The notes: generated from the letters alone by a model not told the origin. A DNA stretch of 64,000 bases from Octopus vulgaris (GCA_951406725.2 OX597819.1:98084001-98148000), one strand, 5' to 3'. Shown: positions 7,326 to 62,238, counted from the stretch's first letter. Made by a program: numbers and translations.

Positions 7326-7470
7326 ATATTATATAGAGGGCATTACTATACATAAATGCCACACGCTAGGAAGGACTCTTAAAGTAAAAACTACCAATTT
7401 GGTAGTTTTGACTTTAAGAGTCTCTCCTAGCGTGTGGCATTTATGTATGGTAATGCCCTCTATATAATAT
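7326..7470. repeat. Foldback palindrome with 72-bp arms
   Basis: Arms centred on 7398 with about 4 mismatches; TA-rich flanks. Confidence 0.95.
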
Positions 7471-7933
7471 ATATATATGTAAATTTTATTCTAGTATATA
7501 CGTGCAAATGTAGGTATATGGTCGTGCGGCTTTTGTGTGTGTGGGGGTATATATAAATATTTGTATGTATATGCTTAGGCCTACTGTACTGATAACAGCT
7601 GGATGTTTTTCCATAACATTTAGCTTGAAATCGTTCGATACACAGTTAACCGAAAGATCTTATTTATTATTCTTCATCTCTGCCCGTTTACAACCTGTGC
7701 CGGAGGAGTAGTCCGGTGGTTTTTAGAGTCATTTGGTACCTGGTAATCCGCTCTATTTAATATAACTATGTATTTAATTATAAATTTAGTATGTCTCTCT
7801 CTCTCTCTCTCTCTCTCTAACTGAAACATGTTATAATGTATATATAAAAATTAAAAATTGTATAATACAGCAGCATTTTCGAACTTCATTTTTTACAAAT
7901 ATATATATATATATATATATATATATATATATA

Positions 7934-9136
7934 CAGTGATACCTCGCAGTACAAGTTTAATTCGTTCCATGACCGAGCTTGTTTTACGATTTACTCGTTT
8001 TACAAATCAATTTTCTCCATTAAAATTAACTAAAATATAATTAATCCGTTCCAGTCCCGCAAAAACCACTCCAAAATATCTTTTTATGGGTTTTGAAACA
8101 GAAAAGGTGTAGTTACAAGTAAAATGACAATTTTAAAAAAAGGGAATGCAAAAGAAATATGTAAGCTGGTTTTATTAACCTTAAATACTGGACAATTTGT
8201 GCGCGAGGAAGACGATGGAATGGAGAGGAAGATTACTGCTTGGAAGGAGAATTTCCTTCCATTGAGACTTTAGGAAGAACAATTTCTGGCGTTTTATCTC
8301 TCACGTCGCTTAATTTAGGCTTCTGGGGCACTCTTTCTTCATTTTTTACATTTGCAGGTCGTTTCATTAGAAACATATCAAGAGAAGTCTGCTTTTTCCT
8401 GCATTTCAAAATGTTATGGAAATGCACCAGAACAGAGTCATTAAATATAGCAGCTGCACGACCTGCAGCTACTTTTTCAGGATGATATTTTTCTAGAAAT
8501 TCAGAAACATACTGCCACTTTGCCAACACTGCCTTTATGTCACTCGTAGAGATAGCATTCTCTGCTACTCCTTCCTCCTCCTCCGAGGAGCCAATCTCTT
8601 CCATCGCATCCAAATGCTGTTGCTCCTGAAGCTGCATGAGTTCATTTGTCGTCAGCATCTCTGAGTGTTCATCTTTTTTCTCCAGGAAGATGCAGATCAT
8701 CGACGTGCTTCGGTCGTATTGACGTGCTACGTCCACTACACGCACTCCTCTATTATATTTATCAATGATTTCCTTTTTCAGTTATATTGCTATCAGCTTT
8801 TTCTTCTTCTTCTCAGCACTATCCTTTGCACTGACCTTCTTAGGACCCATGGCTAACACAACTAATTATTATAAAATAATAGCAAAAAATGCACAAAACT
8901 AAACAAAATCACAAGAGAAAACTCTACAGGGATGTTGTCACAACGAGATTAACAAATGAACTGAGCGAGCGGACACTGCGCCTGTTGGGAGAGCGTGCCC
9001 GAGCTCGGCGCCGACTAGCGGTTGCTTGTATGAAACTCTCTCGTAATGTGTATTTCAAGACACAGATATGCAGGAGTCTGGGCTCGTACAGCAAATTACT
9101 CGTACAATGGTGCACTCGTACTGCGAGGTTCGACTG
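7934..9136 (-). mobile_element. Tigger/pogo (Tc1-mariner) internally deleted DNA transposon
   Basis: TIRs CAGTGATACCTCGCAGTAC / GTACTGCGAGGTTCGACTG with TA flanks; transposase relic inside. Confidence 0.9.
8233..8850 (-). pseudogene. Tigger transposase relic: N-terminal psq-HTH fused to C-terminus, DDE domain deleted
   Basis: MGPKKVSAKDSAEKKKKKLIAI*LKKEIIDKYNRGVRVVDVARQY (one stop) is in frame with ORF 8233..8745, which contains LTTNELMQL and KKQTSLDMFL. Confidence 0.8.
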
Positions 9137-9249
9137 TATATACATACATACATACATACATACATACATACATACATACATACTACACACACACACACAC
9201 ACACACACACACACACACACACACACATATATATATATATATATATATA

Positions 9250-9390
9250 TTTCCTGATTATTTTGGCCGTACTAAAGAAGCAAACCTTTTGTAACAATTC
9301 TACTGGGCACTCTATTTCGATTTCCTTTATAGTCCTCTTGATGTCTTCTGATACTGTCCCCAAAGATCGAACAGTAATTGGCACTATTGT
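9250..9390 (-). mobile_element. R4/Dong-like LINE C-terminal fragment
   Basis: PITVRSLGTVS..VELLQKVCFFSTAKIIRK, the typical R4 ORF end. Confidence 0.7.
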
Positions 9391-9412
9391 ATATATACAT
9401 ATATATTTTTTT

Positions 9413-58355: not shown

Positions 58356-60220
58356 TATATATATATATATATATATATATATATATATATATATATATAT
58401 ATACATATATATGCATACATACACAGACACACACACACACATATGACTAGGTCTTGGAAGAGTCATTACGCTACACAAATTATAAAACACGCACAGATTC
58501 AATTCCACTTTCTTATTACTTTTTAAACTGTGGTTAAATATCTAATCAACTAATTAATATATATTATAATAATAATATAAATAATATATATATGTATGTA
58601 TGTATTATATATATATATAGTTAATTTGAAAATAAAATAACAATTTTATCAAGTGGTCAGTATAGAAAAAAATAACCTTCAAAGGTAATAATTATTAAAA
58701 TTATAAATTAGGCTATCTACGGGATACAACCATGCTAAAAATAGCAGCCATGATCTGACTCTAAAACCACCTTAATTGTCCATATATCAACACGGCGAGA
58801 AAGCTAAGTGACAAGATGAAACTAGTAAAAAATTACTTGATAATTCTAGACCCCGGATTTCTGACTTTGCATTTAGGAATGCTTTGCCTCGTCAATAGAA
58901 TACACACAGAAGAGAAACATATATATATATATATATATATATATATATATATATATATATATATATATATATATATATAAATGTATGAATGCTTGTTTGC
59001 ATGTATATAAACCATAGTTATATATTTATGTATGTGTGTGTGTGTATATATAAATATATATATATATATATATACATATATATATATATATATATATATA
59101 TATATATATATATATATATATATACTACATACATATATATATATACATATATATGTATGAATGTACGTATGTATGCTGGGTTGCGCCCGCGCGCGCGCGT
59201 GTGTGTGTGTGTACGTGTCTGTCTTTGTGCTTGTATGTGTGCACGACCTCGCAAATTAGTGGTTCTGCATAAGAAACCGATAGAATAAGTACCAGGCTTT
59301 ATAAAATAAATACGGGTGTCTATACGTTTGACCAAACCCTTCAAAGCGATGCTGCAAAATGGCCACATTCCAATGACGGCAACAAATAAAAGCTAAAAGA
59401 TATTTAAACGAAAGTCTTAAAGAAAGCCTTTCTTAATTAACATCAGTTGGCGCTAATGTTTGTTATAAAATAACTATATGGTTCGTTCACTAGCCATGAT
59501 AATTTTGTAATTGGTCATTGCTTCCAACTGCTACACAACATATAAAAATTAATACGTCCTTACTATACATGTATACATATATATATATATGTATACATGT
59601 ATATATATATATATATATATATATATATATATATACATACATATACATACATATATATATATATATATATATATATATATATATATATATATATATATAT
59701 ATATATATATATATATATATATATATATATATACTCTTTTACTCTTTTACTTGTTTCAGCCATCCGGCTGAGGCCATGCTGGGGCACCGCCCTTGTTGCT
59801 ACCCTCTCTAAGTCCAGTTTGCCGTGGCTGGCCACTGATCTAAGAGAGAGTTTGTAGCTGCTGCCCTTAGGTTACCTTCGTACCTTGCAGTGGGTTTATA
59901 TATATATATATATATATATATATATATGTGCCTGTATGTATGATGTATCTGTGGATGAATGGATAGATGTGTGTGTAATTATTGCTGCTTATTAATGATA
60001 ATACATACGCACATACATACATATATACATATATACATATATATATATATATATACATACATATATATACTTATATATACATATATATATATATATATAT
60101 ATATATATATATATATATATATATGTATATATATGTATATATATATATATATACGTATATATACATATATACGAATATATATATATATATATGTATTGTA
60201 ATTTTATTGGTGTTCTCCTC

Positions 60221-60480
60221 AGCAAGTTTATAAACGTTCACTACATATATAACAAGTTTATACTTGTTCGTTGCACATATAACAAGTTTACAATTTTTCA
60301 CTCCGTATACACCAAGTTCATAATTGTTCACAGTATATTTAGTATGTTTTTAGCTATTCACTACAAATTATTTTAAACTTGTTAACAGCATTTAACAGTG
60401 ATATATAGTTATACACTATTTACGGGAGGGTTATAGTTGTTCACTGCTTGAATCAACGTTACTATACCTGTAGTAAATAT
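60221..60480. repeat. Degenerate 30-bp minisatellite
   Basis: AACAAGTTTA-like block at 60221, 60251, 60281, 60311; related array at 62470-62750. Confidence 0.7.
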
Positions 60481-60949
60481 GCATTCGTCTGAAAGAAGTA
60501 ATTATTCTCCACTGGCAAGACACACCAGCGATTAGTATATTCACGTTCGAATGTCTCGGAACGTACCAAGAATCAATATGCAAGTCACCGTTTAATTTTT
60601 ACAGTTTATAGTTGTTTAGTATAGATAAGATTTTTATGATTTGTCGTTGATCACTGCATATATATATATACATATATATTTATAATAAGTGTAGGTGGAC
60701 TTTCTCGATTACAGCCAACAATTCTAGTCAACGCAACCATTATGCTCTACCCAACAAAATTCTACCACGTGGACTCTGTTGAGACTAGTAAGAAACAATT
60801 ATGAACTTTTTTTATTACACTTAACTTTTAAAAGTGTTTTTGATAAGGTTCGTTTTTACAAGAACTGAAACATGTAAAATCTCTAAGAAAATTAAAAATG
60901 TTTCTTATATAGTGGCGTTTTCAAACTTCTTTTTAAATATATATATATA

Positions 60950-61352
60950 TCTTTCTCTTTCTCTTGTTTCAGTCATTTGACTGCGGCCATGCTGGAGCAC
61001 CGCCTTTAATCGAGCAACTCGACCCCAGGACTTATTCTTTTGTAAGCCCAGTACTTATTCTATCGGTCTCTTTTGCCGAACCGCTAAGTAACGGGGACAT
61101 AAACACACCAGCATCGGTTGTCAAGCAATGCTAGGGGGACAAACACAGACACACAAACACACACACGCATATATATATGTACATACATACGACGGGCTTC
61201 TTTCAGTTTCCGTCTACCAAATCCACCCACAAGGCTTTGGTCGGCCCGAGGCTATAGTAGAAGACACTTGCCCAAGGTGCCACGCAGTGGGACTGAACCC
61301 GGAACCATGTGGTTGGTTAGCAAGCTACTTACCACACAGCCACTCCTGCGCC
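60950..61352 (-). mobile_element. SINE family A, full length, young
   Basis: Near-identical to 692-1099. Confidence 0.9.
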
Positions 61353-61952
61353 TATATATATAGTTCATAGATGAGAATCAAATATTCTCCGTATAAAATA
61401 TATTTAGTAGTGCCCAAGAGGTTTAACTTGAGCGGGTGGAGAAGTAAATGTAAAGACAAGCAAGTTGAGCAGGTTAATATAGAAAGTATATTAAATGCAG
61501 GAAATGCAAAAAATGTAGGTATGTTTACATATAAAAATGATACCAAGAATTAAAGGCGTTATGTATGTAGGTATCTGTGTATGCATGTATGTCTTAGCGG
61601 TTCGGCAAAAGATCCCGATAGAATAAGTACCCGGCTTTAAAAAACTAAGTACTGGGGTCGATACATTCGATTAAAAGTACTTCAAGGCAGTGCTCCAGCG
61701 TGACCGCAGTCTAATGACTCAAACGAGCCAAAGATTGTATGTGTATATATATATGAAGATATTATTATTAATACAAATAATATATATATATATATATATG
61801 TATATATATATATATAATAAGTGTGCGCGGACTTTCTCGATTACAGCCAACAATTCTAGTCAACGCTCAATACAGCCATTATGCTCTACCCCACAAAACA
61901 CTACCACGTGGACTCTGTTGAGACTAGCAAGCATAAAAACCAAAAAGTAAAT

Positions 61953-62238
61953 CTATAATCCAGGGTACAAGTAGCAGCGTTGCTAGAAATAAGAGGCGGA
62001 AAGTACTCAAATAAGCCACAATATCACTGTAAATTTAACAAGCTGACGAAATCGAAATCACGTGAAATGGGTATATCTACAAATTCTTTTGCGTCTTTTC
62101 CCCCGCAATGGTAGGCTGGCTTTTACTCGCTCCTCGGTTTCATCAGCTTGTTAAATTTACAATGATATTGTGGTTTATTTGAGTATTATTCGATTCTTAT
62201 TTCTAGCAACGTTGGTACCTGTACCCTTGATTATAAAT
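61953..62238. repeat. Foldback with roughly 100-bp diverged arms
   Basis: TATAATCCAGGGTACA..TTTAACAAGCTGACGAAA pairs with TTTCATCAGCTTGTTAAA..TGTACCCTTGATTATA. Confidence 0.85.

Follow-up and report, generated by a model that had tools for sequence, protein, structure and literature searches.

Insertions of endonuclease-bearing (EN+) Penelope-like elements (PLEs) have been described as carrying an inverted, 5'-truncated copy and an optional tail, with a bias towards (TA)n targets (Craig, 2021, PMC8557442, Fig. 2; Arkhipova, 2013, PMC3846280). Cervera and de la Pena (2014, PMC4209133) noted hammerhead ribozyme pairs on opposite strands, 100–700 bp apart, and also described the U3-A8 core as a variant in PLE hammerheads. 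In vitro, the PLE protein of PAc Poseidon cleaves AT-rich DNA on both strands and extends each of them, two internal reverse transcriptase (RT) starts define the tail, and the hammerhead is not needed for insertion (Frangieh, 2024, PMC11167929). In coleoids, Penelope is among the families known to have expanded (PMC8967140), and both the formation of inverted pseudo-long terminal repeats (pLTRs) and the role of PLE hammerheads have been posed as open questions (PMC8557442; PMC11167929). In this study, we analyzed a 64-kb stretch of Octopus vulgaris DNA (GCA_951406725.2 OX597819.1:98084001-98148000; hereafter the window), which is AT-rich, microsatellite-dense and eukaryotic. An original prediction had listed at least 11 cassettes in it (7326, 10953, 14676, 15189, 26724, 31089, 32245, 33980, 53783, 55158 and 61953) as ribozyme-anchored fold-back elements of a candidate non-autonomous PLE or retrozyme system. 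We consider it probable that these cassettes are 5'-truncated 3' ends (pLTRs) of EN+ PLEs, made by the head-to-head joining of two cDNAs, each with its own primer.

The cassettes are probably further examples of known PLE inverted-pLTR insertions, whose layout and minimal hammerheads have been described before. They resemble the insertions of Penelope/Poseidon, Neptune, Nematis and Naiad in the 5'-truncated copy that is inverted head to head, the tail that may be present on one side, the microsatellite targets that hide target duplications, the solo pLTRs and the palindromic junctions; we found a variable inner junction (in one family), an optional tail with two fixed 3' ends, and AT-rich or microsatellite targets. 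In contrast to the published insertions, both copies here are only 30–175 nt long and hold no coding sequence, no cassette is tied to an open reading frame (ORF), the tails are often longer (27–93 nt against 30–40 nt), and the density is high (11–15 in 64 kb). The hammerheads share with the minimal type I motifs of metazoan PLEs (PMC4209133) a short helix I, a palindromic helix III, a C3-G8 or U3-A8 core, and an occurrence as dispersed single motifs and as opposite-strand pairs 100–700 bp apart; unlike that set, several octopus hammerheads, known here as predicted motifs, have palindromes of 7–8 nt in helix III. PAc Poseidon offers a further parallel in its two RT starts, which give tail and tail-less ends, its AT-rich targets and the cutting and extension of both strands, but it belongs to another clade, and the relatives of a PLE relic in the window have a Cys-rich linker between RT and endonuclease. 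The accessible text of PMC11167929 does not invoke both-strand priming for inverted pLTRs, and searches of the open-access literature showed no paper that does so, that maps PLE inversion junctions to hammerheads or that describes octopus hammerheads (subscription journals and supplements lay outside this search). The families may already be catalogued in Repbase, Dfam or supplements.

Inverted insertions between microsatellites

The hairpins are real. With microsatellites masked, self-comparison of the window yielded 13 local inverted repeats spanning 60–400 nt, whereas none of 20 block shuffles yielded any; nine of them are listed cassettes and four are additional (23843, 26261, 27439 and 43700). 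Cassettes 33980 and 55158 were missed by the masked scan and were seen by targeted alignment only. The former is further backed by a full hammerhead and the latter remains weak (36/46, AT-rich), so that 10 of the 11 predicted cassettes stand at their places and 55158 is left in doubt. Arm identity in the listed cassettes is 78–97%; the arms of library or assembly chimeras would be identical, and such chimeras are therefore ruled out. Opposite-strand joints in independent sequencing runs agree with this. With arms matching at 33/34, 15189 is the youngest hairpin.

Loops range from 1 to 85 nt and are short (1–13 nt by alignment) in 7326, 31089, 32245, 15189 and 26724. A one-sided tail of about 27–93 nt could be read from targeted alignments in nine of the 11 cassettes, with no clear tail at 10953 and 61953, and microsatellites border all of them, the left side of 61953 adjoining another element. 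This bears out the predicted succession of microsatellite, inverted arm, loop, direct arm, frequent tail and microsatellite. In agreement with the predicted lack of DNA-transposon termini, the outer ends, compared in targeted alignments, have no terminal motif in common, unlike the presumed mariner-type miniature inverted-repeat transposable element (MITE) at 26843-27044. Fixed terminal inverted repeats combined with a constant interior and a target duplication were not found in the cassettes.

The description of the cassettes as mostly unrelated in sequence was not confirmed. Among the 14 top pairs, 53783 belongs to one family with 31089 (z 18.6) and has further relatives in 14676 (z 9.1) and 61953 (z 6.0), and a weak likeness links 15189 to 26724 (z 3.8). 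The tail of 14676 is homologous to that of 53783, and the tail-less ends of 14676, 31089 and 53783 occupy homologous positions.

The family of the largest cassette, 32245, was followed with one arm plus tail (32200-32420) as query in four of 24 listed runs, one of RNA and three of DNA, the latter each with a different species label. The matching contigs in the DNA runs (896, 1089 and 1076, figures that are not copy numbers) mark a multi-copy family. In these runs 21, 29 and 33 contigs end at 32236 straight onto TA repeats, and others cross the tail to 32200; the family thus has two fixed 3' ends, with and without the tail. Beyond the apex of 32245, 13–26 contigs per row share continuing sequence, and the window copy is therefore 5'-truncated. 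The upstream motif of the family is absent from the window.

Hammerhead motifs and Penelope-like relics

Most cassettes had been said to carry the 3' half of a minimal hammerhead, GAAA-palindrome-UH. The four motifs quoted for it are present, and the window holds 82 matches to the pattern, nine in cassettes and 73 elsewhere; given this number, we rejected the bare motif as evidence. It occurs in six of the 11 listed cassettes versus 2.6 expected from the 73 matches elsewhere, and in two of these six (53860-, 61999+) it faces the apex and is antisense. A full descriptor permitting a C3-G8 or U3-A8 core found three perfect motifs in the whole window, where 15 shuffles averaged 0.33, and the same three against 0.8 at a relaxed setting. 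A scored descriptor was then applied to 20 regions with 60 shuffles each; because it was tuned after the sequences had been seen, its shuffle counts are somewhat flattering. It identified complete hammerheads (each 0/60) in three cassettes, namely 14676, 33980 and, on both of its arms, 32245; two of the three carry the U3-A8 variant. It identified partial ones in 26724 (4/60) and 53783 (7/60), and found none in 7326, 10953, 15189, 31089, 55158 and 61953 or in the four unlisted hairpins. The tally of three complete, two partial and six absent falls short of "most", although an absent motif may have been truncated away or have decayed. Complete hammerheads outside the cassettes lie in the insertions 14906-15130 and 60685-60936 and in the 3' region of a PLE relic (each 0/60). 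No core change occurs among the best 40 of 130 differences in the 32245 family, which makes U3-A8 its majority form.

Two further candidates were discarded, namely an apparent core near 62040(+) in 61953, which faces the apex and fails the descriptor, and a motif at 38073-38106 (-) with a perfect core, a 4-bp helix II and a palindromic helix III but no helix I (23/60 shuffles). Among the Rfam matches listed (150 of 425) there was no hammerhead, and microsatellite matches to miRNA models dominated; exact-pattern scans gave nothing in metagenome contigs or viral contigs.

Both PLE relics that had been placed near 30678 and 22665 were recovered, the first as a GIY-YIG endonuclease domain and the second as an RT thumb fragment (Table 1). 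The GIY-YIG domain has 849 matching proteins at E up to 0.001; its long protein matches carry YRDD and a Cys-rich linker, and the Atlas neighbours of one of them carry RT and GIY-YIG families. The hammerhead of relic 30140-30998 is perfect and lies about 280 nt past the stop. This 5'-truncated relic, lying between TA repeats with its hammerhead, indicates that ribozymes and targets of this sort are found with the EN+ PLEs of this genome. In Pfam, neither the relics nor their long relatives had a GIY-YIG or RT match, P0039 had none in PDB, and a word-index protein search with the relic frame returned 0 matches. Sequence continuity with an RT and GIY-YIG ORF was found for relic 30140-30998, and no link of this kind was found within the window for any cassette. 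Neither relic has DNA similarity to any cassette, and the proposal that they are relics of the cassettes' partner was not supported.

Inner junctions and the route of formation

The hammerheads, the two fixed 3' ends, the (TA)n targets, the variable inner junctions and the lack of common terminal repeats together argue for a PLE origin, which we infer for each cassette. In the model that we propose, the PLE RT-endonuclease would cut both strands of a (TA)n target, and each cut strand would prime one cDNA. Two prematurely ended cDNAs would then be joined head to head, giving an inverted repeat with an optional one-sided tail, and the hammerhead would be a normal part of the pLTR and at most one of several places at which a cDNA stops. 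This putative two-primer route is drawn from what another PLE was shown to do in vitro and from cassette 14676, where the tail is on the short arm only, the hammerhead core is on the long, tail-less arm only, and the long arm ends at the tail-less position. Since each arm of 14676 holds sequence that the other lacks, the two cannot have been copied one from the other, which in this one case favours two separately primed cDNAs over a simple fold-back.

The original prediction had instead tied the turn to the ribozyme, with hammerhead cleavage or structure setting the cDNA end in most copies and the inverted arm starting at helix III or the cleavage site in several cassettes. In the window, the short arms of 14676, 26724 and 53783 do end close to the predicted site (-8, -6 and +2), 33980 lies at -14 (by alignment), and 32245 turns 76 nt upstream of it (-76); all five come from cassettes that had been picked for this trait. 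The 3'-half motif is also about threefold denser inside cassettes than outside. The fold-back points themselves could be tested in the 32245 family, where the joints listed (15 of 41) include eight opposite-strand joints with short-arm ends at 32270, 32274, 32297, 32297, 32334, 32341, 32356 and 32376. Cleavage is predicted after 32334, and these ends spread around it as far as 64 nt in the downstream and 42 nt in the upstream direction. Two of the eight, at 32334 itself and at 32341, lie within 10 nt of the site (p 0.33–0.40, uniform null), whereas others cluster off the ribozyme at 32270-32274 and 32297, which recur as often as 32334; contigs under-represent near-perfect palindromes. In addition, the RNA reads described below show no pile-up of ends, and insertion in vitro was unchanged in hammerhead mutants (PMC11167929). 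Junctions in this family are thus not fixed at the ribozyme, although there may be a modest hot spot there. Fold-back anchored at the ribozyme is not supported as a rule, and we regard it as unlikely to account for most copies.

Several observations weigh against the two-primer model and the PLE origin on which it builds. No cassette is joined by sequence to a PLE coding region, and in the six cassettes that have no detectable hammerhead the PLE origin is argued from layout or from relatedness to 53783. Only one of the 11 is diagnostic for two primers. Of the five window cassettes in which the site can be placed, three end no more than 10 nt away, so that some ribozyme effect is possible; in the 32245 family one joint falls at the site (32334) and a second joint, of unstated kind, also begins there, and if the latter is counted the 10-nt margin, which was chosen post hoc, gives 3/9 (p 0.018). 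The short loops in five cassettes suit a snap-back equally or better. The cassettes could also be of PLE origin but owe their inverted arm to a single cDNA, or an antisense template, that snapped back or primed itself. This is a possibility to be taken seriously, though a less probable one; 10 of the 11 cassettes do not contradict it, and it is the published reading of palindromic head-to-head junctions (PMC3846280). It is at odds with the distribution of tail and core between the arms of 14676, and the listed joints of the 32245 family imply gaps of 34 to >110 nt between the arm ends, with no shared letters reported. Both the two-primer and the self-priming routes may occur.

RNA matches to the 32245 family amounted to 134 reads among 12.9 million records (6% of one run), on both strands, and 81% of them continue into unlike sequence. 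Their starts and ends show no pile-up in this portion of one ordinary RNA-seq run, which may miss circles. This pattern fits read-through in host transcripts. Folding of whole cassettes (structures for 14676, 32245 and 33980) predicts that the cleavage site is taken up in pairing with the inverted arm, and the antisense arm in a read-through transcript is thereby predicted to block the ribozyme, which would make the hairpins likely dead-end insertions and not a replicating system. Adenosine-to-inosine (A-to-I) editing over the arms, which had also been suggested, was not accepted: 22 A>G/T>C sites stood against 16 G>A/C>T sites, not different from DNA (Fisher p 0.11–0.52; one RNA run, no matched DNA). 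Four T>C changes at 32331-32341 (A>G on the ribozyme strand, two of them in GAAA) reach 40–54% of one RNA read class versus about 1% of DNA contig depth. Their read counts are comparable to the counts for A>G and G>A changes, a pattern expected from an expressed copy that has diverged, and they could reflect either core editing or such a copy.

Animal non-LTR retrozymes are likewise short, non-coding hammerhead repeats related to PLE pLTRs (PMC7229834; bioRxiv 10.64898/2026.07.22.740005), and they have been reported as PLE derivatives (bioRxiv 10.64898/2026.07.22.740005); a partial tandem repeat of the GAAA region in 26724 recalls them. Retrozymes, however, form head-to-tail tandems with canonical hammerheads and abundant circular RNA, whereas the cassettes are head-to-head, with hammerheads of the minimal PLE type and few RNA reads. 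Head-to-tail units each with a complete hammerhead were not found: the window has no tandem array with two complete same-strand hammerheads, and the tandem in 26724 is partial and degenerate. Considering also the strand and read-through pattern of the RNA and the predicted blocking of the ribozyme, a self-propagating, non-autonomous retrozyme system of tandem and circular RNA appears very improbable. We give still less credence to MITEs or fold-back DNA transposons, and to assembly chimeras. Short TA-flanked inverted repeats are typical of Tc1/mariner MITEs, and the element at 26843-27044 is presumably one of them. The cassettes nevertheless have one-sided tails, hammerheads and no terminal motif common to their outer ends, and the 32245 family has variable inner junctions and sequence that continues past the apex. 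Arms that differ by 3–22%, together with the opposite-strand joints in independent runs, speak against chimeras. For 32245 both explanations are largely refuted.

Features of the window and implications

The coordinates of the cassettes, of further insertions and of the PLE relics are collected in Table 1.

Table 1. Inverted insertions, hammerheads and PLE relics in the window, with positions counted from its first letter; fractions over 60 are shuffles under the scored descriptor.
Feature	Coordinates	Strand	Properties
Hairpin cassette 7326	7225..7466	-	arms 7318-7397 / 7399-7478; 1-nt apex; ~90-nt tail on left; hammerhead not detected
Hairpin cassette 10953	10955..11045	+	loop 20 nt; arm identity 79%; no hammerhead by descriptor
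Hairpin cassette 14676	14608..14838	+	short left arm 14670-14705, tailed (14608-14669); right arm 14791-14827, tail-less; hammerhead core within loop of 85 nt; sequence unique to each arm
Complete type I hammerhead in 14676	14748..14803	+	U3-A8 core 14753; GAAA 14786; predicted cleavage after 14798; score 10.1; 0/60
Non-hairpin insertion between TA repeats	14906..15130	+	near-perfect minimal hammerhead, core 15000, one mismatch; 0/60; likely a solo PLE end
Hairpin cassette 15189	15190..15352	+	arms 33/34; 11-nt loop; ~92-nt tail; weak likeness to 26724; no hammerhead by descriptor
Decayed PLE RT thumb fragment	22691..22813	+	E 1.8e-5; tblastn E 0.004
Unlisted hairpin	23843..24032	.	68/72; 47-nt loop; within purine-rich tract; no hammerhead
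Unlisted hairpin cassette	26261..26570	+	tailed; between (GATA)n and (TA)n; no hammerhead
Hairpin cassette 26724	26612..26805	-	loop 13 nt; ~93-nt tail with second GAAA-region copy (partial tandem); hammerhead 3' half only; short arm stops 6 nt upstream of predicted site
Unlisted older hairpin	27439..27633	.	68/88; no hammerhead
5'-truncated PLE between TA repeats	30140..30998	-	GIY-YIG endonuclease C-terminal domain 30681-30998 (E 5e-27, one stop) and 3' region
Complete type I hammerhead in relic 3' region	30321..30403	-	C3-G8 core 30398; long helix II; predicted cleavage after 30326; score 13.6; 0/60
Hairpin cassette 31089	31085..31452	+	2-nt apex; dispersed repeat at ~31182-31400 interrupts tail; family of 53783
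Hairpin cassette 32245 (largest)	32197..32584	.	arms 32236-32410 / 32421-32593; ~39-nt tail on left; each arm with a U3-A8 hammerhead, 76 nt from apex; one motif at 32463-32502; multi-copy family member
Hairpin cassette 33980	33979..34160	-	in (CA)n; hammerhead 34029-33996(-), one core mismatch, 0/60; tail on right
Unlisted hairpin	43700..43808	.	38/43; 23-nt loop; outside microsatellite; no convincing hammerhead (2/60)
Hairpin cassette 53783	53783..53949	+	25-nt loop with helix-II-like stem and degenerate 3' half (7/60); 66-nt tail; short arm stops 2 nt downstream of putative cleavage site
Hairpin 55158 (weak, AT-rich)	55155..55327	+	36/46; no hammerhead
Non-hairpin insertion between TA repeats	60685..60936	+	complete U3-A8 hammerhead, core 60840
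Hairpin cassette 61953	61948..62241	.	arms 108 nt; loop 78 nt; distant relative of 53783; no hammerhead

The first 110 nt of the insertion 60685-60936 recur in the window (60685-60792 versus 61817-61931, 87% alike), and the second copy adjoins hairpin 61953. Next to cassette 7326, a tandem duplication of about 235 nt at 6838-7285 (99% alike) takes in the end of the cassette tail. The presumed mariner-type MITE at 26843-27044 has terminal inverted repeats between TA dinucleotides; its left end looks shortened, and a related piece lies at 37349-37387. An intact 349-aa frame at 39595-40644 (-), between (ATT)n tracts, is not a PLE; it encodes the C-terminus of a non-LTR retrotransposon (zf-RVT, E 5e-4), which we take to resemble the R4/Dong type. 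Decayed transposase-like and non-LTR RT-like frames, labelled by eye, occur at 8233-8781 (-), 49817-50425 (+) and 2633-2926 (-); the two tested in Pfam (8236-8781 and 2633-2923) gave no match. Two direct copies of 587 nt at 56911-57497 and 57770-58354 are 99.7% alike and represent a recent duplication or an assembly repeat. An 18-copy minisatellite at 21181-21792 has a 34-nt unit that resembles part of the abundant dispersed repeat of the window. This repeat, 350–400 nt long, also forms an inverted pair at 50348-50697 and 51304-51653 (89% alike, 600 nt apart), which is a larger possible source of double-stranded RNA (dsRNA) than the small hairpins.

As an annotation, the cassettes are ordinary; their value lies in the data set that they offer on the formation of inverted pLTRs and the role of PLE hammerheads. 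The hairpins would also be a dense source of predicted dsRNA in host transcripts. At 11–15 short inverted insertions per 64 kb, thousands of junctions are to be expected genome-wide, and a histogram of them could separate ribozyme run-off, two-primer joining and snap-back. We tentatively suggest, as a possibility that we still hold to be doubtful, that these insertions record PLE integration as such: both strands would prime, at the tail and the tail-less start sites, the cDNAs would join head to head, and a distinct junction peak exactly at the cleavage site would come from RT run-off on ribozyme-cut RNA. If this is true, it would explain the inverted pLTRs, and a genome would for the first time offer evidence of in vivo cleavage by minimal PLE hammerheads.

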